A DNA stretch of 63,856 nt, counting the filler, from Myxococcota bacterium (GTDB lineage: Bacteria > Myxococcota_C > UBA6777), in the NCBI GenBank assembly GCA_023150835.1. It is 3 parts of 3 records of this genome, joined end to end, with 100 filler letters (N's around TTAATTAATTAA, not from the genome) between each part and the next. Parts side by side here need not be neighbours in the genome. Positions count along the whole stretch, not along the records: positions 28,736 to 57,358 come from JAKLKB010000088.1; 2 more parts are not named here. One strand, written 5' to 3'. The position numbers and the translations under genes were made by a program. The first letter of the stretch is position 1. Each line of letters starts with the position of its first letter. The notes under the pieces were generated by a model. That model was not told the origin of the DNA, ran no database searches, and saw only the letters and a list, made by a program, of their open reading frames with translations. Below, piece by piece: positions 28,636-61,862 of this stretch.

Positions 28636-28735
28636 NNNNNNNNNNNNNNNNNNNNNNNNNNNNNNNNNNNNNNNNNNNNTTAATTAATTAANNNNNNNNN
28701 NNNNNNNNNNNNNNNNNNNNNNNNNNNNNNNNNNN
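28636..28735. other. Assembly gap / artificial contig linker
   Basis: 100 nt of N with a TTAATTAATTAA core (stop codons in all frames). Confidence 0.97.
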
Positions 28736-38087: not shown

Positions 38088-38222
38088 CCACCGCCTTTTT
38101 TCACACTCTCCCGAACCGCCACTTTTTTCTTCCACATCCCCGAACCACCGCTTTTTTCTTCCACATCCCCGAACCACCGCTTTTTTCTTCCATATCCCCG
38201 AACCACCGCTTTTTTCTTCCAT
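38081..38222 (+). repeat. 29-bp tandem repeat (about 5 copies) filling the gap between convergent genes
   Basis: CCACATCCCCGAACCACCGCTTTTTTCTT at 38132, 38161 and 38190, plus degenerate copies. Confidence 0.85.
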
Positions 38223-38228
38223 CCTCCC

Positions 38229-39644
38229 TCAAGCAGACTCTTTAGGTACGATCCATCGGCGCAAAAACACCAACAGCACAGGCGCGCTCAGCGTTGTCAA
38301 ACCGATCACCAACCACATCATCGCTGCATTTCGCGGCCCTTCTTCGGGACAATACGCGGCCAACAAATACCCCGAAAAGATCCCTGCGGGTAGCTTTGCC
38401 AACACCCAAGGCAAGCCACTCATCGCCATATACGTGCTTTCTTCTCCTTTTGGCGCGATCGCTGCGGTGTATTCATATAGCTTCGGCCCCCACAGAGCCT
38501 CGCCGATCGACAACATCACATAAAACAAGATCACGGGTACATACACAGGGTGTATTCCCAAGGATTTCGCAATAGGCGCGTAGTGTTGTGCATCAATCGC
38601 CAAAAAAAACGGAGACAACGCAGAAATAAAACCTCCGACAATTAAAACAGAAAAAGTGCGAAATCTTGCTGTATACACAGCAATCAACGGAGGCAAGACC
38701 ATCATCATAAAGCCGTTAATCGAATACGTCTTTCCGATAGCCGCCATCGGACCGATCTCTCGCAACATGAACTTCGGCATCGTGATATGTACATGCGTAA
38801 ACAGTAGCTTGATGACAGACATCAACACGATTAAGATCATAAACATCCAAAAAACCTTGTGCGACATCGACGCCCACAACAAACGCAGCGGATTCTTTCG
38901 CTCTTTCTGATCCCGCTGCGTCGCTTCCACATCTTCTTCTGCGTAGATGCCTTGGCGCACAAACAGCACGATCGCCAACAACCCCAACAACGTCGTCACA
39001 AAGCCAAACAAAAACACCAACTGATAGCTACTGAACTCATACCCCCACAGCCGCAAGACGTAGGGCGTCACATCATGCCCGCCCTTCATCACGATCTTGC
39101 CCTTTGGTACGCCGCCCATGCTGCGCACGATCCATGTTAGCTGATCCAACGCGATCCCCGCCACCAACGCCCCCACATTCATCAACGCATAAAAGATCGC
39201 AAAGGCCAGTCCTCGGCTGCGTGCTGTTGTGTACTGCTTGATCGCCGCCGACTTGATCGGGATCAGCAGAGGCATCCCAAGCGCCAACAACGGCAGCGAA
39301 AACAACACTGTCACGTAAAAAGACGGGGCCACACCAAACAAAAACCGCCCCACCACACACGCCAATAACCCCAACAACAACGAGCGCTTGATGCCGATCA
39401 CATCGCACAACGCCCCCGCCAAAAAGATCAAGATCCCGTACCCCAGCGACCAATAACCAAATAGCTTCCCCGCCTCCACATCGTTTAAGCCCAAGTGTTG
39501 GCTGAAATACAACACCATCACCATCATCGACGTAAAATAAGCCAGCGACTCCATCAGCTTCGCGAAATAAACGACCCACAACTCTCGCACAGACGACTGC
39601 ATCAACAGACGATACTCGTTCAAAAAATGAAGTATTTTTTCCAT
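38229..39644 (-). CDS. MFS transporter (POT/peptide permease-like)
   Basis: GALCDVIGIKRS motif A, AFAIFYALMNVGA, SIGEALWGP and APKGEESTYM. Confidence 0.85.
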   Translation of the reverse strand: MEKILHFLNEYRLLMQSSVRELWVVYFAKLMESLAYFTSMMVMVLYFSQHLGLNDVEAGKLFGYWSLGYGILIFLAGALCDVIGIKRSLLLGLLACVVGRFLFGVAPSFYVTVLFSLPLLALGMPLLIPIKSAAIKQYTTARSRGLAFAIFYALMNVGALVAGIALDQLTWIVRSMGGVPKGKIVMKGGHDVTPYVLRLWGYEFSSYQLVFLFGFVTTLLGLLAIVLFVRQGIYAEEDVEATQRDQKERKNPLRLLWASMSHKVFWMFMILIVLMSVIKLLFTHVHITMPKFMLREIGPMAAIGKTYSINGFMMMVLPPLIAVYTARFRTFSVLIVGGFISALSPFFLAIDAQHYAPIAKSLGIHPVYVPVILFYVMLSIGEALWGPKLYEYTAAIAPKGEESTYMAMSGLPWVLAKLPAGIFSGYLLAAYCPEEGPRNAAMMWLVIGLTTLSAPVLLVFLRRWIVPKESA

Positions 39645-39675: not shown

Positions 39676-39820
39676 AACTGACGCAGTTGGCCAAAAACCC
39701 CGCGTTCTCGATACTTCAAGCGGCACCGTCGCCCGAGTGAAAAACCTTCGATCACCCCGCCAAAACGGGGTCAAGGGGCGACAGTCCCTTGTGGGGTATG
39801 GGGCAACGCCCCACAAAAAC
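39676..39820 (-). repeat. Family B element
   Basis: ACTGACGCAGTTGG terminus and GGGGTCAAGGGGCGACAGTCCCTTGTGGGGTATGGGGCAACGCCCCAC core. Confidence 0.75.
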
Positions 39821-42301: not shown

Positions 42302-42445
42302 AAAAATGACGCAGGTGACAAAAGATCCCGTGTTCGCGACATTTCAAACGACAGAGTCGCCTGCGTGGAGCACAGCGATCTGTTCGACGGTACGGGGTCA
42401 AGGGGCGGCAGTCTACGGCGGGGTGTGGGGTGACACCCCAAACAC
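42302..42445 (-). repeat. Family B element
   Basis: ATGACGCAGGTG terminus and CCCGTGTTCGCG...GGGGTCAAGGGGCG core. Confidence 0.7.
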
Positions 42446-47019: not shown

Positions 47020-48633
47020 ATGGCTGCCGAATATCACATCATCGTCGTCGATCCTCGTGGCCGACAAATGGAATATCCCCTGCGAGGCGAACTTCTGATC
47101 GGTCGATCCCCTCAAAACCACATTATCCTTGACGATCCCAACCTTGCTCCACAGCACCTGAGCATCGGCAGCGACGGGAAAAGCTGCTGGTTTCGTGCAG
47201 GAGATCAAGCCGGAAATATCAACGTCAACGGCGACTTTTCACGCGAAGGCTGGCTCCACGGCGGCGAGCAGATCACTCTCGGAGCCTATCGCCTTTCTCT
47301 CAAAGTACCCGAGATCGACGCCCCCCCTGATCTCGGCGACTTTAGCTTCGATATGCCCGAACACACCGATGATCTCGCCGATGCTGCGGCCTTTCTCGAT
47401 CAACCCAGTGATGCAGCCCCCTCCGATGTCCCCAAACAACAACGCAGCGGCAATGTCCTTTGGCTCGGTTACGCCATCGCCATGTACGTCTTGGCGAGCG
47501 TCGTCTTGGCTTTTGGCAGCATCACCCTCTCTCAGCGGATGTTCGGAAAACCCGATATCCTCGAACAGCGCGAAGACGCGATGATCCGCGCCATGAACCA
47601 GATGCTCAAAGGCCGCACCCTCCTCATCCAACAAAACTGGCAAGCCGCTTCCATCGCCCTACGCGAAGCCGAGTCCCTCACCCCCGAAGGCAGCCCCCTT
47701 CTGAAAGTCATGGCCACCCACCTCACCCGCGCAAACAACGAGTGGGAATCCCTTTCCGCCTATCGACGCGCCAAAGACCTTTACTTCAAAGAAAACAAAG
47801 GCGCAGCAGCCCTCGGCTTACTCAACAAGATCCCCAACGACCGACACATCTACAACGACGCTCGCAAGCTTTATCAAGATATCTACGACAAAAATATCAA
47901 ACAACTCCTTGCCAACGCCCGCGCTGGACTCGATGCCAAAGACGCCGACAAAGCACGCAACAATATCGCCGAAGCCCTCCGCTACGACGGCGATCTCGCA
48001 GAGGCCATCCCGCTCCAACAAGAACTTGAAAAACTCGAAACGGCCACCCCCGAAGGCCGCGCACGACTCGCCGCAGAACGCGCCAAATTCCAAAAAGGCA
48101 TCGGTCTATTTCGCGGCGGAAACAGCAACGCTGCGCTTGCCTTCTTTGAAAACCTCTCCAAAACCTCCACAGGCCTCACCCGCCGTAAGGCCCTACGCTA
48201 CATCAACAGCATCAAAAACTTCAAAACCATCCTCGCCCAAGGCCAACAAGCCCTCAGCAGCGGAAGCAACGCTCAAGCCATCACGCTTCTCACCAAAGCT
48301 CGACAGATGGACGAATCTCTCGGAGGCGGAAACCGCGACAAATATATGGGCCGCCTCGGAATCGCCTACTACAAACGAGGAAAAAGTAGCTTTGCAAGCA
48401 AGAAGTATGCGGATGCTTACCGCGACTATCAACGCTCTCTCACCTTTTCAAGCAACGCCGCTGCCAAAGCCGGCCTTGCCAGCGTCCGCGCCCAAGCCGC
48501 CAGCCTAATCAAACAAGCCAAACTGCTCAAAGATGTCGATGATGCCGAGGCCAGACGCCTCCTTGGACAAGTCATGCAGATCCTCCCCTCCAGCGAACCC
48601 CTCCACTCCACCGCTCGCAGCCTCCGACGTTAA
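47020..48633 (+). CDS. FHA domain - TM - TPR-like protein
   Basis: LIGRSPQNHIILDDP..APQH..NGD FHA pattern, one TM, then helical repeats. Confidence 0.8.
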   Translation: MAAEYHIIVVDPRGRQMEYPLRGELLIGRSPQNHIILDDPNLAPQHLSIGSDGKSCWFRAGDQAGNINVNGDFSREGWLHGGEQITLGAYRLSLKVPEIDAPPDLGDFSFDMPEHTDDLADAAAFLDQPSDAAPSDVPKQQRSGNVLWLGYAIAMYVLASVVLAFGSITLSQRMFGKPDILEQREDAMIRAMNQMLKGRTLLIQQNWQAASIALREAESLTPEGSPLLKVMATHLTRANNEWESLSAYRRAKDLYFKENKGAAALGLLNKIPNDRHIYNDARKLYQDIYDKNIKQLLANARAGLDAKDADKARNNIAEALRYDGDLAEAIPLQQELEKLETATPEGRARLAAERAKFQKGIGLFRGGNSNAALAFFENLSKTSTGLTRRKALRYINSIKNFKTILAQGQQALSSGSNAQAITLLTKARQMDESLGGGNRDKYMGRLGIAYYKRGKSSFASKKYADAYRDYQRSLTFSSNAAAKAGLASVRAQAASLIKQAKLLKDVDDAEARRLLGQVMQILPSSEPLHSTARSLRR

Positions 48634-48724: not shown

Positions 48725-49219
48725 TTAACGCGCTCGATCACGCCCTCCCGCCTGCGCTTGTCTGCGCTCAAAAAAACACGGACGTTGCGGCTTCCCTTGC
48801 TTCAGTTGGATCTGCACCGTCACCAGCTTTCCCCGTTCTGCCCGATGCACCTCCGCTTCGTGTGTCTCGTACCCTTCGCGACGGATACAATACACCCAGA
48901 AGTGGAAGGGTACACCGTGCATCATCAGCGGCATAATCCACTCCCCCCGTAGCTCCTCGACGATGCGGATCTCGCCTTTGTCGTCCGCCGTATAAGAAGT
49001 TGTCTTGTGGATGCGCCGATGCGGATGGGATGCCCACGTCAACGACATCTTCGTCTTGCCCAAGACTTGGCCTTTTGCATCAACAACGCGCAGCACCATC
49101 GACGGCTGCACCACTGCCGTACGCTTCACAGGCAACGGACATCCCGCCAACAACACACTCACCCCAAACAGCCCTCCCCAACGCCCTATCCGTCTCATGA
49201 ACCGTCCATACACCCTCAT
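48725..49219 (-). CDS. Hypothetical lipoprotein (carboxypeptidase-regulatory-like fold)
   Basis: LLAGC lipobox and RVVDAKG...TADDKGE...REGYE pattern. Confidence 0.65.
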   Translation of the reverse strand: MRVYGRFMRRIGRWGGLFGVSVLLAGCPLPVKRTAVVQPSMVLRVVDAKGQVLGKTKMSLTWASHPHRRIHKTTSYTADDKGEIRIVEELRGEWIMPLMMHGVPFHFWVYCIRREGYETHEAEVHRAERGKLVTVQIQLKQGKPQRPCFFERRQAQAGGRDRAR

Positions 49220-49271
49220 CAACGCGCTCCTTCTTTTTTCGTTTTTCCTCGACACGCAAGGGCATTCCAAT

Positions 49272-49285
49272 TTGATCTAGATCAA
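49272..49285. promoter_or_regulatory. FNR/CRP-family (FNR/DNR-type) binding site
   Basis: Perfect TTGAT-CTAG-ATCAA about 110 bp upstream of napD. Confidence 0.8.
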
Positions 49286-49392
49286 GATTATCACCTTGCA
49301 CAAGTCAATCTTCGTTGATTACATCGCCTTATAAATAAGGATTGCAGAGTCCATTGAAAGCCGCGTGATCTGACCCCACAAAGGAGAACGCC

Positions 49393-49632
49393 ATGCCTGT
49401 GATATCCTACCTCGCCTACCCCGAAAAACAACACCGCGCAACCCTCCTTGCAGAACTCAGCGCACATCCCTACTGCGAAGTGATCCCCGCAGAAAATGCC
49501 GATGTTTTCATCGTGGTGACCGACACACCCGACCGCCAAACCGACGAGACTGTCCGTACCTATCTTGAGCAGCACCACGGCCTCTTGTGCCTCGCCATGA
49601 TCCACGGGCAAGTCGAAGACCCCCAAGAGTAG
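49393..49632 (+). CDS. napD: NapD-like chaperone
   Basis: 79 aa, AAGGAG RBS, MPVISYL...IVVTDT pattern, directly upstream of napA. Confidence 0.72.
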   Translation: MPVISYLAYPEKQHRATLLAELSAHPYCEVIPAENADVFIVVTDTPDRQTDETVRTYLEQHHGLLCLAMIHGQVEDPQE

Positions 49633-49642
49633 GAGCGAAACG

Positions 49643-51964
49643 ATGACGATCTCTCGACGTGAATTTCTCAAAAACCTCGCCATCGGGAGCGCGCTCACCG
49701 CAGCCTCCCAACTGATCCCGGGCGTCTCCTTTGCGTGGGAAAAACCCACCAGCCAACATGGCAGCGATATCACATGGAAAAAAGCCCCCTGCCGCTTTTG
49801 TGGTACAGGATGCGGCCTCTTGATCGGTGTCAGCGAAGGGCGTGCCGTCGCTGTCAAAGGCGATCCACAAAGCGCCGTCAACAAAGGGCTTTTGTGCGTC
49901 AAAGGCTACCACTCCATCCAAGCCTTGTACGGAGAAGATCGCCTGAAAAAGGCGATGATCCGCAAAAATGGCCAGATGGTCGAAGTTCCGATCAAAGAAG
50001 CGCTCGACCTGATCGCACAAAAGATCAAAGAAACCATCCAAAGCCACGGAAAAGACGCCGTTTCGATGTACGGCTCGGGCCAGTGGACCATCCCTGACGG
50101 ATACGCCGCCTCCAAACTGATGAAAGGCTGCATCGGCACCAACAACCTCGAAGCCAACGCTCGCCTTTGCATGGCCAGCGCAGTCACCGGCTTTATGACC
50201 ACCTTCGGTCTCGACGAACCCATGGGCTGTTACGAAGACATGGATCATGCCGACACTTTCTTCTTGTGGGGCAACAATATGTCCGAGATGCACCCCGTCC
50301 TTTTCTCACGCATCCTCGAACGAAAACGTACCCACCCGCGCACCTTGATCATCGACTTCGCAACCCGCAGCACCCGCACCAGCGTCGCTGCCGATCGCTC
50401 GATCCTCTTTCGCCCTCAATCCGACCTCGCTGTCGCCAACGCCATCTGCTACGAACTCTTTCGCACGCAGCGTATCGATCTCTCCTTCTTGCAGAAACAT
50501 TGTAGCTTCCGCAAAGGTAAAACCCAGATCGGATACGGACTTCAAGACAAATTCGCCTTCCAAGATACTCCTGAGATCACCAACCTCGACGAATACAAAA
50601 AATTCCTCGAAGACTACACTCCCGAAAAAGTCGAAAAGATCTCGGGTGTTTCAGCCGAAGATATCCGCTACATGGCATCGCTCTACGGCGATCCAACCCG
50701 TAACGTCGTCTCCTACTGGTGCATGGGGATGAACCAACACACGCGGGGAACTTGGATCAATAACCTCGTTTACAACATCCATCTTCTTGTCGGAAAGATC
50801 TCTCGTCCGGGCAACGGTCCTTTCTCTTTGACAGGTCAGCCCAGTGCTTGCGGAACTGTGCGTGAAGTGGGAACCCTCACCCACAAACTCCCCAAAGGCA
50901 TGGTCATGGACCCCAAAGCCCGAAAGTTCGCCTCCGATATCTGGAAAGTCCCTTATAGCCGCATCCCCGCCAAGCCCACTTACGACACCGTCGAGATGTT
51001 TCGCGCCCTTGATCGCGGTGATATCCGCTTCATGTGGATCCAAACCACCAATCCCATGGTCACCATGCCCAACCTCCGACGTTACCGCGATGCCACCAAA
51101 AAACAAGGCCGCTTTATCGTCGTCTCCGAGATCTATCCCACCCCCACCACCGCCATCGCTGACGTGATCCTCCCTTCGGCCATGTGGATCGAGCGCGAAG
51201 GGATGTTCGGAAACTCCGAGCGCCGCACACAACACTGGGAAAAGATGGTCAACCCACCCGGGGACGCCATGAGCGACACATGGCAGATCATCGAAGTGGC
51301 CCGCCGGTTGGGCTTTACCAAAGAATTCCCTTGGAGTGAAGACAAACATATCGAACACATCTGGAACGAGTATACCCGCTTCCATGACAATCCAGCCCAT
51401 CGCATGGCCGATTATGAAACCCTCAAACGCGAGTCCGGCGTGATCTGGCCCTATGTCAACGGAAGATCCACCCAATGGCGCTACAACACCCAACTCGACC
51501 CCGCCACCAAACGCCGCAACGGAGCCGTCGACTTCTACGGAAAACCCGAAGGCAAAGCGTGGATCTGGCTCCGCCCCTACGAGGCCGCCCCCGAAGAACC
51601 CAGCAAAGACTACCCTTTCTGGCTCAATACAGGCCGCGTCCTTGAACACTGGCACACAGGCTCCATGACCCGCCGTATCCCCACCCTACACCAAGCCGTC
51701 CCCGCCTCTTACGTCGAAATCCATCCGCTCGACGCAAAACGCCTGAATATCCGCCATGGCGACAAAGTCAAGCTCACCAGTCCACGCGGTAGCATCCTCA
51801 TCAACGCCTCGCTGAACCAACGCGCTTGTCCTCCTCTCGGCCAAGTCTTCGTCCCGTTTTTTGATGAAAATTATCTGATCAACGAACTGACCCTCGACGC
51901 TTATTGCCCGATCTCTCGGCAACCAGACTACAAAAAATGCGCGGTCCGCGTGGAGAGAGCATGA
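49643..51964 (+). CDS. napA: Periplasmic nitrate reductase catalytic subunit
   Basis: Tat signal SRREFLK, CRFCGTGC...CVKG [4Fe-4S], NARLCMASAV, SLTGQPSACGT, WHTGSMT and PDYKKCAV. Confidence 0.95.
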   Translation: MTISRREFLKNLAIGSALTAASQLIPGVSFAWEKPTSQHGSDITWKKAPCRFCGTGCGLLIGVSEGRAVAVKGDPQSAVNKGLLCVKGYHSIQALYGEDRLKKAMIRKNGQMVEVPIKEALDLIAQKIKETIQSHGKDAVSMYGSGQWTIPDGYAASKLMKGCIGTNNLEANARLCMASAVTGFMTTFGLDEPMGCYEDMDHADTFFLWGNNMSEMHPVLFSRILERKRTHPRTLIIDFATRSTRTSVAADRSILFRPQSDLAVANAICYELFRTQRIDLSFLQKHCSFRKGKTQIGYGLQDKFAFQDTPEITNLDEYKKFLEDYTPEKVEKISGVSAEDIRYMASLYGDPTRNVVSYWCMGMNQHTRGTWINNLVYNIHLLVGKISRPGNGPFSLTGQPSACGTVREVGTLTHKLPKGMVMDPKARKFASDIWKVPYSRIPAKPTYDTVEMFRALDRGDIRFMWIQTTNPMVTMPNLRRYRDATKKQGRFIVVSEIYPTPTTAIADVILPSAMWIEREGMFGNSERRTQHWEKMVNPPGDAMSDTWQIIEVARRLGFTKEFPWSEDKHIEHIWNEYTRFHDNPAHRMADYETLKRESGVIWPYVNGRSTQWRYNTQLDPATKRRNGAVDFYGKPEGKAWIWLRPYEAAPEEPSKDYPFWLNTGRVLEHWHTGSMTRRIPTLHQAVPASYVEIHPLDAKRLNIRHGDKVKLTSPRGSILINASLNQRACPPLGQVFVPFFDENYLINELTLDAYCPISRQPDYKKCAVRVERA

Positions 51965-52803
51965 GTACGCAAAACACCCAACATACCGACGCGCCCAACC
52001 CAAGCGCGACCCCTTCCCCGACCGATACACCCAACCTAAGCACAACCTCTTCTCTTTCGGGCGAAGGATTTACCGTTAGCTACGGCTTTATCGCTATCGC
52101 TTCGGGAATGATGCTGATGGGCGCTTGGGTGCTTGTCACCCTCGTGCTTCAAGGCATCGACCCCCAAGATCCTCACAAAAGCCACAACCCTCCCAAAGCT
52201 GCGCCCGTCCCACATCTCGCGGCTGCTTTGCCCGCAACTCCCACACTCACAAACGCCCTACTCTCCGCAACCCCCGGTTCTTCGGTGCGTTCCCTTCAAC
52301 GCTTCTACAAACAACGTGCTTATTCGGGTGCCCCACCACATATCCCTCACGATATCCTCGAACACAACGGCCAGATCGATGCTTGCCTGTCCTGCCACAG
52401 CCAAGGCGGTTATGTCCCCAAGTACAACGCCTTTGCACCCATCACCCCCCACCCCACCTACACAAACTGCGTCCAATGCCACGTCCCACAGCGCACACAA
52501 AGCACCTTCCGCCCCTCCGCATGGAAAGCCTCTCCTCGCCCCCAACTCCGCCGCACCGCACTCGCGGGAAGCCCTCCACCCATCCCTCACGATCTCCATA
52601 TGCGCACCGATTGCAACGCCTGTCATGCCGGACCCGCCGCCGTCAAAGAGATCCGCGTCCCACACCCCGAGCGCAGCAACTGTCTCCAATGCCACGTCCC
52701 CCGCAAACAAGTCCCTCCCTTTCGCAGCCTTTCTCCGCTCCACCAACGCCTCGAAAAAAACGCTCCTCCACCCACCCCCTCACCCCAAAGGAAGAGACCA
52801 TGA
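51961..52803 (+). CDS. napB: NapB-like cytochrome c with a duplicated diheme domain (4 CxxCH) and an N-terminal membrane anchor
   Basis: RAYSGAPPHIPH...CLSCH...CVQCHVP, then GSPPPIPH...CNACH...CLQCHVP. Confidence 0.8.
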   Translation: MSTQNTQHTDAPNPSATPSPTDTPNLSTTSSLSGEGFTVSYGFIAIASGMMLMGAWVLVTLVLQGIDPQDPHKSHNPPKAAPVPHLAAALPATPTLTNALLSATPGSSVRSLQRFYKQRAYSGAPPHIPHDILEHNGQIDACLSCHSQGGYVPKYNAFAPITPHPTYTNCVQCHVPQRTQSTFRPSAWKASPRPQLRRTALAGSPPPIPHDLHMRTDCNACHAGPAAVKEIRVPHPERSNCLQCHVPRKQVPPFRSLSPLHQRLEKNAPPPTPSPQRKRP

Positions 52804-53447
52804 CACGCCCTCTCTGGTTACTCGCTTTGCTCTTCCCCACCCTCCAAGCCTGCAAGATCGCTTGCCATCTTCCCGGACAACACACCTCTGTTCACGACAC
52901 CATCGCTAAAAAACAGCACTCCTTGCCGCTTTCCTCACGACTTTTTCCTGAATCGACCACCCAAATCAACTCCAAACAAACGATCCCTGTTCGGTGGGAA
53001 AGTCCATCAAGAGACTTTTTTGTCCATAAAAGGATCCCTCACCTCAAACGATACCCTTGCAGTGGCTGCCACGATGACAAGATGCGCTACGATAGTCCCG
53101 AACGCTTTCGCGCCACACACGGCGATATCTTGCTCAAACACGCCTCGCCCGGCACTCTTCAATGCCAGTCCTGCCACCAACGCAAGAACATGGATCAACT
53201 CGCACTCCCCGCAGGAGGAAGCACCTCCTTCGATCATGCCCACCAGCTCTGCGCTTCTTGCCACCAAAGCCAAGCCCGCGACTGGGCTGGCGGTGCGCAT
53301 GGAAAACGCATCTCCTTCTGGTATGGCCCCCGCACCCTTGAAAGCTGCACAAGCTGTCACAATCCCCACCAGCCGCTGTTTCCCAAAAAATGGCCCAAGA
53401 TCCGCTATCGCCCTTTCCACCCCCACAAGGCGCGATCCAACCGCTAA
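52800..53447 (+). CDS. Tetraheme cytochrome c (possible lipoprotein)
   Basis: CSGCH, CQSCH, CASCH and CTSCH; WAGGAHGKR motif; LQAC lipobox-like; ATGA overlap with napB. Confidence 0.85.
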   Translation: MTRPLWLLALLFPTLQACKIACHLPGQHTSVHDTIAKKQHSLPLSSRLFPESTTQINSKQTIPVRWESPSRDFFVHKRIPHLKRYPCSGCHDDKMRYDSPERFRATHGDILLKHASPGTLQCQSCHQRKNMDQLALPAGGSTSFDHAHQLCASCHQSQARDWAGGAHGKRISFWYGPRTLESCTSCHNPHQPLFPKKWPKIRYRPFHPHKARSNR

Positions 53448-53458
53448 GGAGTCCAACC

Positions 53459-54598
53459 ATGTCTCGCACCAAGGCATTTCTCTTCGGACAAACAGCGGAA
53501 CACCAACCGCCCGAAGAATATACCTACCCACTGCTTCCACCGCCCCAATCCACCCAAGCGGCCTCCGCATCGCCCTCTTCGACTTCTGCATGCGCCGCCC
53601 CAAGCTCCTGTGGCTGTCAGCCACCCAAGCCCACCGCAGTCGATACTCCATACAAAGCCTTGCTCAAGGCCGATCTCCAAGAGGCCGAACCTGCCGATGG
53701 GATCTCACGACGCGAGATGCTTCAACACCTTCTGATCGGTGTCGCGGCTACGGCAGCCGTCGCTTCTGGGTGCAGTGAAAATCTTGAAAAAGGCTCGCTG
53801 AATTGGGAAGAGTATTTTAAGAAAAATTATCGCGTCATGACCGCCCAAGAACGCACCGATACCGTCCAGCGGCTCGAACGACTCGCGCAGATGCGCAACG
53901 AAAAAAAACCCTCGATCCAAACCAAAAACGCGATCCCGGGTGTCCTTTACGGCTACGCCTTCAATATCTCCAAATGCAAAGGTTACATGGATTGCGTCGA
54001 AGCCTGCATCAAAGAAAACAACCTCGACCGAAAGTCGGGGATGCAATACATCCGTATGTTCGAGATCGAAAAAGGAAAGTTTAACGTCAACCTCGATCAT
54101 GCCGATGGCACCTACCACCACGAAGTCCCCGCAGCAGGCCATGTCTACATGGGTACGCAGTGTTTTCAATGCGAAAATCCCCCTTGCGTCGCCGTTTGCC
54201 CCGTAGGTGCGACGTGGAAAGAAGACGATGGTATCGTCGTGATCGACTACGACTGGTGCATCGGCTGTCGTTACTGCCAATCTGCCTGCCCCTACTGGGC
54301 AAGGCGCTTCAATTGGCATGAACCTGTCGTCCCCAACACCGAAGTCAATCCCATCCAACACTACCTCGGAAACCGCAAGCGTAAAAAAGGTGTCATGGAA
54401 AAATGCACCTTTTGCATCCAACGCTCCCGCGACGGCAAGCTCCCCGCGTGCGCAGAGGCCTGTCCTACAGGCGCACGTGTCTTCGGAAACCTTCTTGATC
54501 CAAATAGCGAGATCCGTTATGTCCTCGCAAACAAAAAAGTCTTTCGACTCAAAGAAGATCTCGGTACCGAACCCAAGTTCTGGTACTTTATGGACTAA
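53459..54598 (+). CDS. NrfC/PsrB/DsrO-like 4Fe-4S dicluster protein
   Basis: SRREML Tat-like motif; CKGYMDCVEAC, CFQCENPPCVAVCP, CIGCRYCQSACPY and KCTFC...PACAEACP. Confidence 0.9.
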   Translation: MSRTKAFLFGQTAEHQPPEEYTYPLLPPPQSTQAASASPSSTSACAAPSSCGCQPPKPTAVDTPYKALLKADLQEAEPADGISRREMLQHLLIGVAATAAVASGCSENLEKGSLNWEEYFKKNYRVMTAQERTDTVQRLERLAQMRNEKKPSIQTKNAIPGVLYGYAFNISKCKGYMDCVEACIKENNLDRKSGMQYIRMFEIEKGKFNVNLDHADGTYHHEVPAAGHVYMGTQCFQCENPPCVAVCPVGATWKEDDGIVVIDYDWCIGCRYCQSACPYWARRFNWHEPVVPNTEVNPIQHYLGNRKRKKGVMEKCTFCIQRSRDGKLPACAEACPTGARVFGNLLDPNSEIRYVLANKKVFRLKEDLGTEPKFWYFMD

Positions 54599-54711
54599 TA
54601 CGATATCCGTGTGATGTGTGATCGTAAGATATCGCGTAGACGCTCGATTATAGGGCAGCCACAGAGGGCTGCCCCTACGTTTTGCGATCACACGATGGGC
54701 GGATCTCGTAT
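54598..54711 (-). mobile_element. Family A element, 114 bp, inside the nap operon
   Basis: TA|ATACGATATCC...GGGCAGCCACAGAGGGCTGCCCCTACG...GGATCTCGTAT. Confidence 0.8.
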
Positions 54712-54728
54712 AACCGCAGGAGAGCGCG

Positions 54729-55964
54729 ATGACGCCCCTTCAAGACAGGACTCTATTTCGCTTTTTTCGCGACGTGCTGCGGCACTCCGTCACAGGCAGT
54801 CTGCGCTACCACCTCTGGATGGGCAGTCTGACCTTTTTGATGGCGCTTGGCACCTACGCTTATCTGATCCAACTCAACAAAGGTCTCGGTGTCACGGGCA
54901 TGTCCGATTATGTAAGTTGGGGGCTTTACATCTCCAACTTTACCTTCCTTGTCGGCATCGCCGCAGCCTCGGTCATGTTGGTTTTGCCGGCCTACATCCT
55001 CCATGACGTAGACTTCTCCAAAGCAGTCTTGATCGGCGAAGGACTCGCTGTCACCGCACTTTTGATGTGCCTTGCCTTTGTCACCGTCGATATGGGCGGA
55101 CCTCACCGCCTCTGGCACATGATCCCCAAGATCGGCTACTTCAACTGGCCCCAATCCATGCTCACATGGGACGTGATCGTCCTCAACGGTTATCTCGCAC
55201 TCAACCTCTTGATCCCCTTCTATATTTTATTCTCTCATTATCGTGGGCGCTCCCCCAAAAAAGCCCTCTACGTCCCTTTTATCATGTTTTCCGTCTTCTG
55301 GGCTGTCAGTATCCACCTCGCCACCGCCTTTTTGTACGCAGGCCTCCCAAGCAGACCCTACTGGAACAACGCACTACTCGGGCCACGTTTTCTTGCTTCC
55401 GCTTTTGCCGGTGGCCCCGCCCTGATGATCTTGATCCTCCACTTTATCAAGCAAAACACCGACTTCCCGATCGCCGAAGAAACCATCCGTAAACTCGCCC
55501 TGATCGTCACCGTCGCCGCACAGATCAACCTTGTCATGCTTGGCTCTGAACTCTTCAAAGAATTCTACGCCCCCACCCACCACAGCCAAAGCGCGACCTA
55601 CCTTTTCTTCGGACTCAAGGGTCACAAACCTCTTGTCCCGATCATCTGGACCGCCATCTTGCTCAATGTCTTTGCGACGTTGCTCTTTACCTTCCATCGC
55701 ACCCGCAACAACAAGCCGATCCTGCTCGTCTCTTGCACCCTGCTCTTTGCCGCGATCTATCTCGAAAAAGGTATGGGACTCGTCGTTCCCGGCTTTATCC
55801 CTTCGCCGCTTGGCGAGATCGTGGATTACTTCCCCACATGGATCGAGATCGCCGTCACCATCGGCATCTGGGCGCTCGGCTTCTTTGTCTTTACACTCCT
55901 CGTCAAAGCCGCCATCGCCATCGAAAAAGAATACGAAACCCACCACCGCTCCGAGCCACACTAA
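54729..55964 (+). CDS. NrfD/PsrC/DsrP-like quinol-interacting membrane anchor
   Basis: GLGVTGMSDYVSWGLYISNFTFLVGIAA, DMGGPHR, PRFLASAF and PTWIE. Confidence 0.9.
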   Translation: MTPLQDRTLFRFFRDVLRHSVTGSLRYHLWMGSLTFLMALGTYAYLIQLNKGLGVTGMSDYVSWGLYISNFTFLVGIAAASVMLVLPAYILHDVDFSKAVLIGEGLAVTALLMCLAFVTVDMGGPHRLWHMIPKIGYFNWPQSMLTWDVIVLNGYLALNLLIPFYILFSHYRGRSPKKALYVPFIMFSVFWAVSIHLATAFLYAGLPSRPYWNNALLGPRFLASAFAGGPALMILILHFIKQNTDFPIAEETIRKLALIVTVAAQINLVMLGSELFKEFYAPTHHSQSATYLFFGLKGHKPLVPIIWTAILLNVFATLLFTFHRTRNNKPILLVSCTLLFAAIYLEKGMGLVVPGFIPSPLGEIVDYFPTWIEIAVTIGIWALGFFVFTLLVKAAIAIEKEYETHHRSEPH

Positions 55965-56099
55965 GTTCTTTGCTTCCTTTTGCACCTTTTTTCTTGTGCT
56001 GTTCTCTCCACCAAAAAGTCGATGGAGAGGAGGCGTGACGCACGCCCACCACACAAAGGTACAACCCCTTCACCCGCTCGCTCAGCACAGGAGGCTATC

Positions 56100-56528
56100 A
56101 TGGAACAAGGCCGATACAATATCGCCGCAGGACTCGCAACGCTCGGTTTTTTCATGGCATACGGATTTTTCTTAATCTATATGCGCGACTTTCATCCCAA
56201 CAAAGCACAGTGGATTGCAGAATATGCTGTCGGAAAACATTTCGAATCCCGCCTCGCCCACGTCCACGGAAACTTGCTTGCTTTGCTCAACATCCTTCTT
56301 GGCTTTATCTTTCTTAAACTACAAGGCGGCGAAAAACCACGTAAGATCGCCGCATGGATGGGCCTGATCGGGCTGCTTATGCCGCTCGGTATCCTTGGCG
56401 AAGTCTACTTCAATATGTCTCCGATCTTCGTTCTTGTCGGAGCCGCGAGTATGTTGGCCTCTGTTGTCTTCACCGCTTGGCTTTCCTACCGCTTTTGGCC
56501 CTCCGCTCAAAACGCCTCGTCCCCTTGA
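56100..56528 (+). CDS. Four-TM membrane protein with a His-rich motif (possible heme-b binder)
   Basis: GGAGG RBS, RLAHVHGNLLALLN motif and four hydrophobic helices. Confidence 0.7.
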   Translation: MEQGRYNIAAGLATLGFFMAYGFFLIYMRDFHPNKAQWIAEYAVGKHFESRLAHVHGNLLALLNILLGFIFLKLQGGEKPRKIAAWMGLIGLLMPLGILGEVYFNMSPIFVLVGAASMLASVVFTAWLSYRFWPSAQNASSP

Positions 56529-56593
56529 CATCTCGCGCCCTTTTTGGCTACACAGTCCCCTCCCTCTTCAACCCTCATCTGCTCGGGTGCTTC

Positions 56594-57070
56594 ATGCGAC
56601 AAAAAACAACTTATGCTCTATTGATCGGCTTATTGCTCTCTGCGTTCGGTGCTGTCGCCAGTTTCGCAACGCCCACCACGCGGCCCACTCCCAAACCCAC
56701 CCCGTCGGCTGCTCACAACAAACCCGAACTCACTTTCAAAAGCGTGATGATCCTCCTCCAACAACAAATGAACCTTGCTGCGGCGGGGATCTACCAAGAA
56801 GATTACGCTCTTATCCAACGCGCAGGATACGCCATCGCCAAACACCCCGCCCCTTCGCTCGCAGAACGCAAACGCCTTGTGCGTGTCATCACCCCCATCC
56901 GCGAACAATACCGTACCGTTGGCCGAATCGTCCACGGAAGCGCCGAAGACATGGCCCGTGCCGCCGAAAAACGACAGATGCCCGCTGTCTTAACCGCCTA
57001 CCAACAACTCCTCGGGGGATGCGTTGCTTGCCACCAATTAACCCGCGCCTCCTTCCAAGCCACCCCCTAA
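56594..57070 (+). CDS. Cytochrome c' / class II cytochrome c
   Basis: Signal peptide, helical body and C-terminal CVACH. Confidence 0.8.
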   Translation: MRQKTTYALLIGLLLSAFGAVASFATPTTRPTPKPTPSAAHNKPELTFKSVMILLQQQMNLAAAGIYQEDYALIQRAGYAIAKHPAPSLAERKRLVRVITPIREQYRTVGRIVHGSAEDMARAAEKRQMPAVLTAYQQLLGGCVACHQLTRASFQATP

Positions 57071-57184
57071 TACGATATCCAAGCAATGTGTACACAAAGG
57101 AGAGTACGTAGACGCCCTATTCTTGGGCAGACACAGGGGTCTGCCCCTACATCCTTACGATGACACAACGGGCGTATCTCGTAT
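57070..57184 (-). mobile_element. Family A element, 115 bp
   Basis: TA|ATACGATATCC...GGGCAGACACAGGGGTCTGCCCCTACA...GTATCTCGTAT. Confidence 0.8.
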
Positions 57185-57229
57185 CACACCCCCGCCGTCA
57201 AACCCCCTCCAAGATCCTTTTGCTGTGAT

Positions 57230-57358
57230 TTCCGTGTACTCTTCTGCGTTCTTTCCGCACTTTCCGCACTTTCCGTGTACTCTTCTGCGTTCTTTCCGCA
57301 CTTTCCGCACTTTCCGTGTACTCTTCTGCGTTCTTTCCGCACTTTCCGCACTTTCCGT
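57230..57358 (+). repeat. 41-bp tandem repeat (at least 3 copies) running into the gap
   Basis: TTCCGTGTACTCTTCTGCGTTCTTTCCGCACTTTCCGCACT at 57230, 57271 and 57312. Confidence 0.9.
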
Positions 57359-57458
57359 NNNNNNNNNNNNNNNNNNNNNNNNNNNNNNNNNNNNNNNNNN
57401 NNTTAATTAATTAANNNNNNNNNNNNNNNNNNNNNNNNNNNNNNNNNNNNNNNNNNNN
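57359..57458. other. Assembly gap / artificial contig linker
   Basis: 100 nt of N with a TTAATTAATTAA core. Confidence 0.97.
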
Positions 57459-58144: not shown

Positions 58145-61100
58145 TTACACCGAGCGGAAACGGCGACGCACGGACCACAACAACACGCCCAACAACAGCC
58201 ACATCAACAGCAACGAATGACCGCCTGTTTGCGTCGTTTGGCAGCTACACCCCGGCATATCACCTTCGCCACTTCCTTCCGTCGTGGTTTGTTCGATACC
58301 CTGCTCTTTTACGACTTCGGGATCTCCTCCGGTCGCTGGTTCTGTGATGGTATTTCCGCTGTCTTCGGAGACGACTTCGTCGGTGGCTTCTGGGGCGAGA
58401 GGTTCTTCTTCGTAGATCGGCTCACCGGGGGGGCCTTGTTTGGGATCTTGGGGGCGGTTGGTGCAATGGCCCGAACGACACACCGTCCCCGCAGGGCAAG
58501 TGATCGAAGCACAAGGATCATGCGCACAAACGCCGTCTTTGCAGTACTGTCCACCATGACAAGCCCCTTCGGGACAGCGCTTTTGACAGCTCCCTTCTCG
58601 ACAGGTTTGGTCGGCCCCACCGCAGTTTTGATCATCACAGGTGTTTTTCTCGCATTTGTCATCTTTGCAGACTTCATCGGGTGCACAATCGCATGCCTTG
58701 ATGCACTTGCCTTCGCGGCAGTATTCGCGATCCGCACAAGTGATCCCCGCGCAAGGATCCGCTGTACATTTCCCATTGACGCACTGCTTCCCGGGCTCGC
58801 AACCATACGCATAACAATCGGGCGGCACACAGCGGCCCCGCCGACAAAGCTGATCGCTCGGACACTTCACCCCCACACAAAGATCCTCGCACCGGCCCTC
58901 TTTGCACACATAGCCGTCTGGACAAGCGACGTTTGTACACGTTTTCCCGACACAAAAACCACCTTCACAAGACTGACCTTGTGGACACTCTTCGTTGCGG
59001 CACTTGGGACGACAACCCGAATCCACGCATTTGGCTCCGCTGTCGCAACTGGCCGTCCCTTCGTCCACTTGGCCGTCGCAGTTGTCATCTTTTCCGTTGC
59101 AGACCTCGGGTTGTGGTTGGGGGGCGGTGCATGTGTTCCAATCGCCACGTATGCAGCTTTGCTCGCCTTCACCACAAGCGGTCGTACACTTGCGCGTCAA
59201 ACCTTCGTCGATCTTTCCATCGCAGTTGTCGTCTTGACCGTTGCAAACTTCGGCTGTTGGGGTCTTTCCTTGCTTGTGGACACAAGCAGTCCATGAGCCT
59301 TCTTTGCAGGTCTGTGTGCCTTCACCGCAAACGTGCTGGCAATCGCGTACAAGATCTTCGTCAGCCTGTCCATCGCAATCGTTGTCGCGTGCATCGCAGA
59401 CTTCTGCTTCAGGCGTTCCGGGAGTGACACTACATTCGACGCCCGTCCCATCGGCCTTGCACTTAAACACGCCTGTTCGATAACAGATCCCTGTCCCAAC
59501 GCCACAGCTTTTTCCTTTTTCGGGAAACGTCTCGTCGATCTTGCCGTTGCAGTCGTCGTCTTTGTCGTTGCACGTTTCTTTTGGCAGCGTACAAGTCGTC
59601 CACTGGCCTTTGCTGCATACCTGCGTCCCAACGCACTTGCCAGTATCACAGGGGCGAGAGAGACCGTTATCGATCTGCCCGTCGCAGTCGTCATCTTTGT
59701 TATTGCATTCTTCGGGTTTGGCATTGACCTTGACACAAGCGCCCCATTGACCGGCACTACAAGTCTCGATGCCGCACGTTCCGCAAGGGCGCGTCAAGCC
59801 GTCGTCGATCTTGCCGTTGCAGTCGTCGTCTTTGTTGTTGCATACCTCTGTTTGCGGGCGCACAGAACAAGTCCCCCAAGCATTGTTGCTGCACGTTTCG
59901 GTTCCTGTTCCACAGGTGTTCGTACAAGGCCGAGTACCCGAGGCGTTGCACGATCCCCATGTGTTGTTCGAGCAGCTTTGCGTGCCTGTTCCACAATTGT
60001 TCGTACAAGGTCGATTACCCGTTGCGTTGCAAGTGCTCCATTTGCCGGCACTACAGGTCTGTGTGCCTGTTCCGCAAGTGCTGGTGCAGGCTTGTGGGGC
60101 GATGTTGTCGTCGATCTTTCCGTTGCAATCGTCGTCTTGATTGTTGCAGATCTCGGGAACGCCTTGCGAACCTTGGCAAGCGCTCCATTGACCGGCACTA
60201 CAGGTCTGTGTCCCGCCACCACAACAACCACGCGTCAGTCCGTCGTCGATCTTTCCGTTGCAGTCGTCGTCTTTGTTGTTGCAGGTCTCGGTTTTGGGCG
60301 ACACCGAACATGTTCCCCAACGGTTGTTGCTACACGACTCGGTGCCTGTTCCACAAGCATTGGTGCAAGGGCGTGTCCCTGTTGCGTTGCACGAACCCCA
60401 TGTGTTGTTGCTGCATGACTCGGTGCCTGTTCCACAGGTGTTCGTACAGGGCCGAGTACCCGAGACGTTGCACGATCCCCACGTGTTGTTCGAGCAGCTT
60501 TGCGTGCCTGTTCCGCAATTGTTCGTACAAGCGCGCTGTCCTGTTGCGTTGCAAGTCCCCCATTTGCCGGCACTACAGGTCTGTGTGCCTGTTCCGCAGT
60601 CGTTGGTACAGGCTTGTGGAGTGACGTTATCGTCGATTTTTCCGTTGCAGTCGTTGTCTTTGTTGTCGCAGATCTCGGGACTCGGAGAGGGTGCGTTGCA
60701 ATTCCCCCAGACTCCGGCGGTACAAGTCTCTTGACCTTTGCAGCCGAGCTTGTTGCAATCGCGTACAAGGCCCTGATCGACCTTGCCGTCGCAATCGTTG
60801 TCCTTGTTGTCGCAGATCTCGGTTTTCGCATTTTTTGTTGCGTTGGTGATGATCGTGTTCATCACCGCGATCAGATCGGCAGCGCTGTTCGAGACGTAGT
60901 ACTTGATATTTCCTGCGAGATCCGTCCCACCGCGTGTGGCGAGATCGTTGAGGCAGACAGGGTTGACCAACGCGCCAAAGCCCACCACATAGGTCTTTAC
61001 GTCGTAGGCCAAGCCTTTCACATTCAACGTACGCAACGCCGTCACTTCCGCGCTTGGGCAACGATCCGAAGGCTCCCCGTCCGTAATAAACAAGACCGAC

Positions 61101-61489
61101 GTGGGCCGCCCCGGGATCGGATCTGCGTTCAAAGAGCGATTGATCTCGGTTGTTGCGGTGTTCAGAGCAGAGACCATAAAGGTCTGCCCAAGTGGATTGA
61201 TGTTGTCCAACGCCGATTGCAGCGCAGCAACGGCTGTCGGCAACGGAGCATCCACCGAGGCCGCATCCGAAAAGGTCACCAAACCAAAGCGTACCTGTGT
61301 GCTGTAGGTGTTGGTCACGCTTTTGAGGGCTGTTTTGGCATCCGTCCACTTATTGTTGGTCAGCATACTCCCCGATCGATCGAGGATCACCAAGATATTT
61401 GGGGGATCACAAAAAGCAAAGACTGTGTTGGAAAACAAGATCGCGAACGCCAGAACGGATACAAACCCAACCGCTCTCCACCGCTGCAT
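58145..61489 (-). CDS. VWA-domain surface protein with Cys-rich (ExCxxxDxDCxGxxD) repeats and a MYXO-CTERM-like anchor
   Basis: Signal peptide, ILDRSGSM MIDAS, FITDGEP, many EICDNKDNDCDGKVD-type repeats and a C-terminal GCSCQTT-hydrophobic-RRR. Confidence 0.88.
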   Translation of the reverse strand: MQRWRAVGFVSVLAFAILFSNTVFAFCDPPNILVILDRSGSMLTNNKWTDAKTALKSVTNTYSTQVRFGLVTFSDAASVDAPLPTAVAALQSALDNINPLGQTFMVSALNTATTEINRSLNADPIPGRPTSVLFITDGEPSDRCPSAEVTALRTLNVKGLAYDVKTYVVGFGALVNPVCLNDLATRGGTDLAGNIKYYVSNSAADLIAVMNTIITNATKNAKTEICDNKDNDCDGKVDQGLVRDCNKLGCKGQETCTAGVWGNCNAPSPSPEICDNKDNDCNGKIDDNVTPQACTNDCGTGTQTCSAGKWGTCNATGQRACTNNCGTGTQSCSNNTWGSCNVSGTRPCTNTCGTGTESCSNNTWGSCNATGTRPCTNACGTGTESCSNNRWGTCSVSPKTETCNNKDDDCNGKIDDGLTRGCCGGGTQTCSAGQWSACQGSQGVPEICNNQDDDCNGKIDDNIAPQACTSTCGTGTQTCSAGKWSTCNATGNRPCTNNCGTGTQSCSNNTWGSCNASGTRPCTNTCGTGTETCSNNAWGTCSVRPQTEVCNNKDDDCNGKIDDGLTRPCGTCGIETCSAGQWGACVKVNAKPEECNNKDDDCDGQIDNGLSRPCDTGKCVGTQVCSKGQWTTCTLPKETCNDKDDDCNGKIDETFPEKGKSCGVGTGICYRTGVFKCKADGTGVECSVTPGTPEAEVCDARDNDCDGQADEDLVRDCQHVCGEGTQTCKEGSWTACVHKQGKTPTAEVCNGQDDNCDGKIDEGLTRKCTTACGEGEQSCIRGDWNTCTAPQPQPEVCNGKDDNCDGQVDEGTASCDSGAKCVDSGCRPKCRNEECPQGQSCEGGFCVGKTCTNVACPDGYVCKEGRCEDLCVGVKCPSDQLCRRGRCVPPDCYAYGCEPGKQCVNGKCTADPCAGITCADREYCREGKCIKACDCAPDEVCKDDKCEKNTCDDQNCGGADQTCREGSCQKRCPEGACHGGQYCKDGVCAHDPCASITCPAGTVCRSGHCTNRPQDPKQGPPGEPIYEEEPLAPEATDEVVSEDSGNTITEPATGGDPEVVKEQGIEQTTTEGSGEGDMPGCSCQTTQTGGHSLLLMWLLLGVLLWSVRRRFRSV

Positions 61490-61862
61490 AGTCGAACTCC
61501 TTTTCGTGAAAGCACCCTCACCGCGAAACAAGACGATGGATCGGTGCTTGGTTGTCGCCCCCCCCGCACCCTTTTTGTCTTAACACGGAAGATCAAAAAC
61601 TTCGAGAAAAACTTTGAAGACACCTTTGCAACAACACGACAACATTCTTTTTGGATCAGCACAACATCTCCCCCTTCGCCTATGACCCTGCCTTTGCCTT
61701 TCCAATCTCAGATCGGCGCAAAAAACCTTCACCGCTGCTGCGCAGTGTTCGCTGAGTTGCGATTCAGGATTGACGCCCTTTTGCAACCCCGCTAAGTTAA
61801 GGGGCGATTTTTCTTTTGATCTTTATTGTATAGATGACGCAGTTCTGTGTAAGGAGGATGGG

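Follow-up and report, generated by a model that had tools for sequence, protein, structure and literature searches.

A putative NrfD-type quinol module in a widespread variant of the periplasmic nitrate reductase operon

The nap operon and its protein products

We analyzed a 63,856-nucleotide stretch of DNA (the window) from the draft genome of a bacterium labelled Myxococcota (GCA_023150835.1), in which eight co-oriented + strand genes and a perfect FNR-type box upstream of them occupy positions 49272–57070. A first-pass annotation, made from the sequence alone, had placed a co-oriented eight-gene cluster for periplasmic nitrate reduction (Nap) behind an FNR box here, and all eight genes were found in place. 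Six of them form the core of the operon, which begins as follows:

49272–49285, no strand: FNR/CRP-type palindrome TTGAT-N4-ATCAA, TTGATCTAGATCAA, 108 nucleotides (nt) upstream of napD
49393–49632, + strand: napD-like chaperone gene, 79 amino acids (Pfam NapD E value 2.7e-4, 21.4 bits, below the cut-off of 28)
49643–51964, + strand: napA, catalytic subunit with molybdenum bis-molybdopterin guanine dinucleotide (Mo-bisMGD) and a [4Fe-4S] cluster, 773 amino acids, assigned by NCBIfam equivalogs
51961–52803, + strand: napB2, N-terminal transmembrane (TM) helix and two NapB-like dihaem repeats, 280 amino acids, four CxxCH (Pfam NapB 28.8 bits against 25.1)
52800–53447, + strand: tetC, lipoprotein-like tetrahaem cytochrome c, 215 amino acids, four CxxCH
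53459–54598, + strand: NrfC/DsrO-like Fe-S protein (nrfC), 379 amino acids, with a twin-arginine translocation (Tat) RR pair at residues 84–85 and a lipobox-like Cys105
54729–55964, + strand: NrfD/DsrP-like integral membrane subunit (nrfD), 411 amino acids, presumed to hold the quinol site (Pfam NrfD 112.4 bits against 25.8)

These genes are tightly packed: napA/napB2 and napB2/tetC are joined by ATGA overlaps, and spacers of 10–11 nt separate napD from napA and tetC from nrfC. The 130-nt spacer between nrfC and nrfD is a copy of a dispersed repeat of about 118 bp.

The molybdoenzyme was confirmed to be NapA and not an assimilatory nitrate reductase (Nas) or formate dehydrogenase (Fdh), as the first-pass annotation had proposed. 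It passed the cut-offs of both NapA equivalogs (NF010055, 971.2 bits against 904; TIGR01706, 945.2 bits against 930.55), and a Nas or Fdh identity was ruled out by model scores far under the cut-offs. Among solved structures, the best relative was Escherichia coli NapA (2NYA, 787 bits), with the C. necator and R. sphaeroides enzymes next (787–733 bits for the three). Cys176, in a conserved CMASA context, aligned with chain residue C143 of 2NYA, the Mo ligand; the CxxCxxxC motif for the [4Fe-4S] cluster aligned as well, and a Tat motif, SRREFLK, occupies residues 4–10. A segment of about 50 residues in the E. coli chain (543–592) is missing from the NapA of the window.

Downstream of napA are two tetrahaem cytochromes. 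Each of the two units of NapB2 comprises one PPxIPH motif and two CxxCH motifs, and all four CxxCH and both PPxIPH motifs were invariant in 35 sequences. The underlying duplication can still be seen in the DNA as repeats 213–240 nt apart (D13 and D17), and a TM helix at residues 41–65 was confidently predicted by AlphaFold2. Because of its NapB homology and the ATGA overlap with napA, which indicates translational coupling, NapB2 was assigned to NapA; the dihaem NapB donor of Nap is present here in a variant, tandem and TM-anchored form.

The second cytochrome, TetC, belongs to a family of 1043 representatives at E ≤ 1e-10, for which no specific curated model exists among those searched. Its four CxxCH motifs and His107, His114, His167 and His190 did not vary among 57 sequences, at least 90% of which also keep Cys18 where the signal peptide ends, a pattern that fits a lipid-anchored cytochrome with four bis-His haems. 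The AlphaFold2 model (predicted local distance difference test (pLDDT) 77.5) gave no match at E ≤ 0.001 in a Foldseek search against the PDB and none above Z 2.3 in a VIA-align search over 48,161 chains, in which the best chain was the decahaem cytochrome MtrA (6R2Q_A; 73 residues aligned, root-mean-square deviation 3.5). No fold was assigned, and these searches do not prove it to be new.

The start of the Fe-S gene was set at 53459, upstream of the start given by a minimal reading. Among NCBIfam models, DsrO came closest to its product (188 bits, cut-off 200), followed by QrcC (148.9 bits, cut-off 400), ArrB and NrfC (TIGR03149, 121.5 bits, cut-off 377.6), and the nearest solved chains were PsrB, ArrB and ActB. 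The protein carries Fer4 domains only, with 15 Cys residues that were invariant in 44 sequences; their 3+4+4+4 pattern suggests one three-Cys and three four-Cys cluster sites. Residues 1–105 (53459–53773) include an extension ahead of the twin-arginine motif, which measured 25–108 residues in the orthologues (L010–L089). This extension contained at least three Cys in 53 of 71 orthologues (consensus CGxxxCxC), and a lipobox-like Cys followed a hydrophobic stretch in 60 of the 71. A Cys-rich region preceding the Tat signal of a possible Tat lipoprotein is unusual.

The membrane subunit passed the NCBIfam cut-off for DsrP (416.2 bits against 350), scored 46.3 bits against 570 for QrcD, and had ActC of alternative complex III as its nearest solved relative (42.9 bits). 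In a review of the NrfD family (Calisto and Pereira 2021, PMC8076601), the quinone-site and gate positions of such subunits are given as an acidic residue or His in TM helix 2, a pocket Ser, and an Arg or Lys in TM helix 8 where the half-channels meet. Asp121, Ser143 and Lys347 of the window's protein aligned with ActC His139, Ser164 and Arg395 and were invariant in 42 orthologues; Asp/Ser/Lys is the pattern that the same review assigns to DsrP1. With these residues invariant at the reviewed positions, the subunit looks like a working quinol site. Both putative dehydrogenase subunits are unusually conserved, with a mean column identity across phyla of 51% for the Fe-S protein and 63% for the NrfD-like protein. 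By these similarities, the predicted quinol module is of the NrfD type, alternative-complex-III-like or DsrOP-like.

Database names for the membrane subunit are varied (polysulfide reductase, HybB-like, molybdoenzyme anchor). One protein (P0206), which NCBI names 'sulfate reduction electron transfer complex DsrMKJOP subunit DsrP', shows 100% identity to the product of a gene that follows nap genes (L053:11487-12719). The genomic context of this Nap-linked copy makes the name wrong, and the DsrP model, whose cut-off the window's protein passes too, probably over-calls in nap operons.

Contact between the Fe-S protein and TetC was examined with a complex model comprising Fe-S residues 105–379, TetC residues 18–215 and four haems. 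The model scored 0.86, compared to 0.00 for the best of three controls. In the calibration, 116 of 157 solved complexes and 2 of 215 mismatched pairs reached the mark of 0.86. The runs had at least 70% of their contacts in common, and the pLDDT of the partner was at least 81. The modelled interface sets the invariant TetC segment 162–174 against Fe-S residues 159–184, around the three-Cys motif I (Cys173, Cys179 and Cys183). The first-pass annotation had called for a multimer of six proteins; the set was reduced to this pair, for which the model supports a contact and backs the Fe-S-to-tetrahaem step of the electron path that it had proposed.

Conservation and a proposed electron path

NapB2 relatives numbered at least 571 at 90% clustering. 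The loci examined were the best 80 of at least 525 candidate stretches encoding such a relative, drawn from contigs of one genome per species. The six-gene core was colinear in 64 of the 80 loci, across about ten phyla. In the other 16 every detected gene was colinear: six end before nrfD, six begin inside or after napA, and four lack only a detectable napD. A tblastn relative of napD lay directly upstream of napA in 68 loci. The NrfC- and NrfD-like genes, which the first-pass annotation had asked to be looked for beside napA, follow it wherever the contig reaches; nrfD was present in 74 loci and cut off by the contig end in the other six. No conserved seventh gene was found, as the largest similarity group among the 50 loci with a same-strand open reading frame after nrfD had 11 members. 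Extra DNA inside the core was seen between the tetC and Fe-S genes (4.2 kb, L029:5404-9635) and between the Fe-S and NrfD genes (0.8 kb, L021:7715-8533).

Carriers include Bacteroidota (Tenacibaculum, Flagellimonas, Maribacter, Reichenbachiella, Cyclobacteriaceae and others), Gemmatimonadota, Acidobacteriota, Verrucomicrobiota/Kiritimatiellales, Planctomycetota, Latescibacterota, Ignavibacteria, Rhodothermales, Bacteriovoracaceae and Myxococcota-labelled metagenome-assembled genomes (MAGs). Co-occurrence was assessed in 151 Flavobacteriaceae genomes, drawn from the family of a Tenacibaculum genome. NapA, NapB2 and the NrfD-like protein were found in the identical 31 genomes, and the remaining 120 had none of the three. 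The NrfD-like proteins of the 31 carriers were 62–69% identical, with the three genes on one contig within about 5 kb. All NapA-bearing genomes of this sample have the layout described here.

Searches of the whole genome, which is 93.03% complete, gave no match to NapC/NirT/NrfH (PF03264), no NapH over the cut-off (best 68.8 bits against 213, a 727-amino-acid frame beside a NosZ-like gene) and no NrfA over the cut-off (best PF02335 match 21.5 bits against 24.1, on another contig). NapGH was found neither in the genome nor in the cluster, NapG not having been searched for on its own; the reported absence of napC, napG/H and nrfA from the cluster was borne out. The dsrA model (TIGR02064) also had no match. 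The genome encodes a cd1 NirS (386 bits, with paralogues) and the NosZ-like protein (476 bits, under the cut-off of 625), and another contig (C166) carries a second locus of the NrfD family together with a multihaem gene, probably an alternative complex III. Given a single NapA, the presence of NirS and no NarG in these searches, which also returned no NirK, Nap is the sole enzyme for dissimilatory nitrate reduction found in what is apparently a denitrifier.

Paralogues of the tetC–nrfC–nrfD trio, 30–48% identical and without NapA, were found in three relatives of the organism. There they sit among cytochromes with 11–15 haems (L100:6296-16737, L101:6321-17092 and L102:2335-11946, in relatives G003, G001 and G004, respectively), in clusters with MtrC/MtrF-like and Geobacter-type motifs; L100 also encodes a 514-amino-acid protein without a family. 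These clusters may be electron outlets of the porin–cytochrome type. Because the trios occur without NapA, TetC was assigned to the dehydrogenase module, which, as judged from its gene neighbourhoods, can plug into different terminal partners.

The operon is real and apparently intact, and it belongs to a widespread, uncharacterized Nap variant. We propose, with a probability of about three in four, that it encodes a dissimilatory periplasmic nitrate reductase fed by a dedicated three-part quinol dehydrogenase in place of NapC or NapGH. Quinol, perhaps menaquinol, would be oxidized at the NrfD/DsrP-like membrane subunit; the many carrier phyla are mostly users of menaquinone. From there, electrons would cross the four Fe-S clusters of the NrfC/DsrO-like protein, which is exported by the Tat pathway, then the four bis-His haems of lipid-anchored TetC and the membrane-anchored, tandem-NapB tetrahaem NapB2, to reach the [4Fe-4S] and Mo centres of NapA, where nitrate would be reduced to nitrite. 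Nitrite would move on to cd1 NirS, so that the Nap system would start the denitrification chain of the organism. This path agrees with the quinol–NrfD–NrfC–tetrahaem c–NapB–NapA wire of the first-pass annotation; we infer each of its electron-transfer steps, the placing of TetC ahead of NapB2, the identity of the quinone, the regulation and, if there is any, the proton translocation.

Several points weigh against this proposal. Its steps rest on sequence and modelling, and none has been measured in any organism as far as was found in the literature. The complex model, unlike its calibration, was built with alignments of our own and with ligands, and the score may be part memory, as a loosely similar contact between an Fe-S subunit and a multihaem subunit occurs in solved alternative complex III. 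With the Fe-S protein and TetC the sole pair modelled, the proposed order of TetC and then NapB2 rests on homology and gene order; the AlphaFold2 model of NapB2 was poor (pLDDT 60.2, predicted template modelling score 0.31) and unfit for a fold search. The presence of the operon sequence in RNA libraries (below) is no proof of transcription or of a single transcript. The genome is a draft of 239 contigs, in which the operon lies 288 nt from a contig end. A NapC/NrfH-family protein is encoded elsewhere in two of three cultured Bacteroidota genomes with the operon, making an alternative donor possible in those two. A NapC/NrfH-family gene of Tenacibaculum xiamenense (G006:C33:398900-399364; 51 bits) is separated by about 11 kb from the nap operon and may be part of an nrfHA pair. 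The genome of Flagellimonas pacifica DSM 25885 (L069), a cultured carrier, had no match to the NapC family above the cut-off.

Of most interest is whether periplasmic nitrate reduction would conserve energy through the NrfD-type module, a possibility that the first-pass annotation had raised. Classical Nap that depends on NapC is regarded as non-electrogenic. With its invariant Asp121, Ser143 and Lys347, the NrfD-like subunit might turn Nap into a coupling site, at which quinol oxidation would drive proton translocation or a redox loop, a tentative suggestion that we regard as rather doubtful.

The strongest rival holds that NrfD, NrfC and TetC form a quinol:cytochrome c oxidoreductase of general use, a small substitute for alternative complex III or the bc1 complex that would feed NirS, NosZ and cytochrome c' besides Nap, with a branch at TetC. 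The paralogous trios with their 11–15-haem neighbours and no NapA would suit such a role, as would the continuation of the operon into a cytochrome-c'-like gene and the need of NirS and the NosZ-like protein for periplasmic electrons. Against it, the close NrfD-like gene occurred only with NapA and NapB2 in the flavobacterial sample (31 of 31 carriers and none of the other 120 genomes), colinearity of the six genes extends across phyla, and the probable alternative complex III on contig C166 is a separate NrfD-family/multihaem locus. We therefore consider a general oxidoreductase unlikely and a module dedicated to Nap the better reading.

A different order within the wire is less probable still. 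TM-anchored NapB2 might take electrons straight from the Fe-S protein, leaving TetC as a side branch or haem store. ActA of alternative complex III is a TM-anchored pentahaem cytochrome (structure 6F0K), to which the N-terminal TM helix of NapB2 is comparable, and two dihaem repeats exceed what docking to NapA needs. Two points speak against this arrangement: the model sets invariant TetC residues on the Fe-S protein (0.86 compared to 0.00), and TetC keeps company with NrfC and NrfD in paralogous clusters without NapB2.

A third rival, in which the molybdoenzyme would not reduce nitrate in the cell and would act on another oxyanion or as a non-catalytic subunit, could draw on the missing equivalent of E. 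coli residues 543–592. It is very improbable, given the retained Cys176 in its CMASA context, both equivalog cut-offs passed, no other dissimilatory nitrate reductase found in a NirS-bearing genome, and the link between nitrate reduction and NapAB in the Tenacibaculum maritimum genome paper (PMC5561996), a species whose operon may be of another type.

Promoter region, flanking features and host

Beyond the core, the following features were recognized in and around the operon:

49330–49336, + strand: candidate −10 element TATAAAT, a putative site from direct reading of the sequence
54595–54720, no strand: dispersed palindrome-bearing repeat of about 118 bp in the nrfC–nrfD spacer (repeat families D4, D5 and D9)
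56022 or 56100 to 56528, + strand: small membrane protein with about four hydrophobic segments, a lineage-specific accessory
56594–57070, + strand: secreted monohaem protein, 158 amino acids, with a C-terminal CxxCH, weakly cytochrome c'-like, a lineage-specific accessory
57067–57191, no strand: second copy of the dispersed repeat (D9 copy, 75% identity), beginning at the stop codon of the last gene

The FNR-type box was the single match in the 63.9-kb window, where 0.09 were expected, and at least one match arose in 9 of 100 shuffles. Of 68 related loci, 7 have an FNR-like box in the 400 nt ahead of napD, among them those of two other MAGs labelled Myxococcota and of two from Kiritimatiellales. 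As predicted from the box, the operon is probably turned on at low oxygen by an FNR-type regulator. A consensus scan listed no + strand promoter, around 49330–49336 included, and the only + strand terminator-like hairpin that it returned (54653–54674) belongs to the dispersed repeat.

Contigs from three RNA-seq libraries of one activated-sludge sample, from one study, covered 49354–54625 (5272 nt, in one of the runs) and 54669–57115, with 0–3 differing letters. The break between 54625 and 54669 coincides with the ~118-bp repeat in the nrfC–nrfD spacer and recurs in a DNA assembly. The RNA contigs start at 49354, 49370 and 49726, and the bin 48906–49351 is without RNA cover while a contig of DNA run X5 spans it. 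These starts would be compatible with transcription beginning downstream of the FNR box; as contigs from one sample, they were not counted as evidence. A form with a deletion of nrfD through the cytochrome c' gene (joints 54624>57097 and 54711>57123) was rejected because the shorter side of the joints was 22–25 letters long and both ends fell in copies of the same dispersed repeat.

The two accessory genes are largely restricted to this lineage. The small membrane protein matched no Pfam or NCBIfam family, had a DUF423-like Atlas lead and was found downstream of nrfD in 1 of the 80 loci (L010). The final gene, which the first-pass annotation had called cytochrome c', bears that label on weak evidence: it has the C-terminal CxxCH and an Atlas lead to PF01322 (25 of the 30 best clusters, score 0.95), but its direct match to PF01322 was under the cut-off (E 0.015, 16.7 bits against 26.5) and its match to PDB 1BBH had an E value of 0.65. 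A relative of this gene was present in 1 of the 80 loci.

The ~118-bp repeat had at least 49 matches in its own genome, with 40 of 760 candidate places scored. Copies, which are intergenic and form a G+C-rich hairpin, also occur at 28882–29068 and elsewhere, and both operon copies start at a stop codon. The element looks like a repetitive extragenic palindrome (REP) or miniature inverted-repeat transposable element (MITE). Other repeats in the window are a second dispersed element, about 130 nt long and present three times (29103–29241, 39679–39817 and 42307–42444), a 29-nt tandem array (38096–38240) and a tandem repeat with a period of 41 nt and three copies (57220–57358) that runs up to the contig end and the run of N at 57359.

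The window is made up of three contigs (C21, C22 and C23) with runs of N between them. Each N block (28636–28735 and 57359–57458) consists of twice 44 N with 12 letters between. As the blocks are joins of contigs, genes across them need not be neighbours. The nap cluster is the 3' end of the middle contig, its last gene stopping 288 nt before the contig end. The draft genome amounts to 7.56 Mb in 239 contigs (contamination 2.02%). A Myxococcota-labelled MAG is the nearest public relative, with 89–97% protein identity across the operon, and the phylum-level group of the organism holds only six species in the genome collection searched. The earlier designation 'myxobacterium' stands as the NCBI label of this nearest relative and had no support beyond it. 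Near-identical DNA was found in activated-sludge, wastewater and aquatic runs from several studies, four of which runs were examined in detail. Genes typical of large predatory or social bacteria lie elsewhere in the window: upstream of the operon, one for an FHA–TPR protein (47020–48633, + strand), and on the next contig, one for a 1128-amino-acid protein that combines a VWA domain with metal-binding repeats of the MopE type (58145–61531, − strand).

Relation to known systems

In the full-text literature searched, no description or bench test of this system was found, with subscription-journal reviews of Nap outside the coverage. Several papers contain passing mentions or related cases: in the description of Lacipirellula parvula, one sentence mentions an operon in which NapA is accompanied by an Fe-S subunit that is fused to an NrfD-like one (PMC6995999), a MAG study reports, for two of its MAGs, that a multihaem/4Fe-4S/NrfD cluster follows the Nap genes (PMC10732223), the T. 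maritimum genome paper names the enzyme simply NapAB (PMC5561996), and papers on Caldithrix, Thermosulfurimonas and Deferrivibrio deal with other Nap variants. The words Nap and nitrate reductase do not occur in the NrfD-family review (PMC8076601). The suggestion that this is a poorly described system holds insofar as only passing mentions were found in print; the layout itself is widespread in several phyla.

Hundreds of species-level genomes pair NapA with this different, strictly conserved input module. Surveys based on counts of napA, or on searches for napC and napGH, consequently mis-describe the electron path in carriers, and annotation pipelines label the membrane subunit polysulfide reductase, HybB-like or even DsrP. 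Should the NrfD-type subunit translocate protons, estimates of the energy that nitrate reduction yields in soils, sediments and wastewater would have to be revised. Activated-sludge and wastewater data sets, in which interest centres on denitrification, contain this organism repeatedly.

In textbook Nap, NapAB is fed by NapC or NapGH in a non-coupling or poorly coupling manner. The operon shares with the classical systems (napFDAGHBC and napEDABC) the catalytic NapA, Tat export, a napD-like gene and NapB-type haem domains as the immediate donor. It differs from them in that no NapC/NirT or NapH gene was found in the genome, NapB is tandem-duplicated and TM-anchored, and TetC and the NrfC-like and NrfD-like proteins are added. 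The Desulfovibrio-type clusters (napCMADGH and napMADGH) likewise place a tetrahaem cytochrome, NapM, between the membrane module and NapA and abandon the usual NapB/NapC set. They keep NapGH (and, in Desulfovibrio, NapC) without NapB, whereas here NapB domains are kept and doubled, the membrane module is of the NrfD type and TetC is lipoprotein-like; TetC and NapM are set apart here by these descriptions.

Alternative complex III (ActABCDEF; 6F0K, 6BTM, 6LOD and 8K9E) offers the same sequence of parts, from a cofactor-less NrfD-type subunit through an Fe-S protein to membrane-tethered c-type cytochromes. ActB holds one 3Fe-4S and three 4Fe-4S clusters, a complement that the 3+4+4+4 Cys pattern fits. 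The same complement is listed for QrcC in a table of the NrfD-family review (PMC8076601). Unlike in alternative complex III, the Fe-S protein here has no fused molybdopterin-like domain (379 residues compared to about 1000), the cluster has one NrfD-type subunit and no ActD, ActE or ActF, and the acceptor would be a dedicated molybdoenzyme of the same operon.

The DsrJOP half of DsrMKJOP is similar in that the DsrP cut-off was passed and the DsrO cut-off narrowly missed (188 against 200), the Asp/Ser/Lys pattern is that of DsrP1, and a small multihaem cytochrome stands beside the pair. Here, by contrast, no DsrM, DsrK or DsrJ genes are adjacent, the partner is NapA, and four bis-His-type haems are predicted compared to three in DsrJ; with nap neighbours and no dsrA found in the genome, a Dsr system was rejected. 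E. coli NrfABCD and Qrc likewise link the quinone pool to periplasmic partners through a multihaem cytochrome, a four-cluster ferredoxin and an NrfD-type subunit. The NrfC, QrcC and QrcD scores were far below their cut-offs, however, no NrfA exceeded its own, and of the Nrf-type models the broad Pfam family NrfD alone was passed; Qrc, moreover, works in the direction of quinone reduction and contains QrcB, which lacks cofactors. By these comparisons, the operon belongs to none of the Nrf, Dsr, Qrc and alternative complex III systems, though its module would work like their quinol-side halves.

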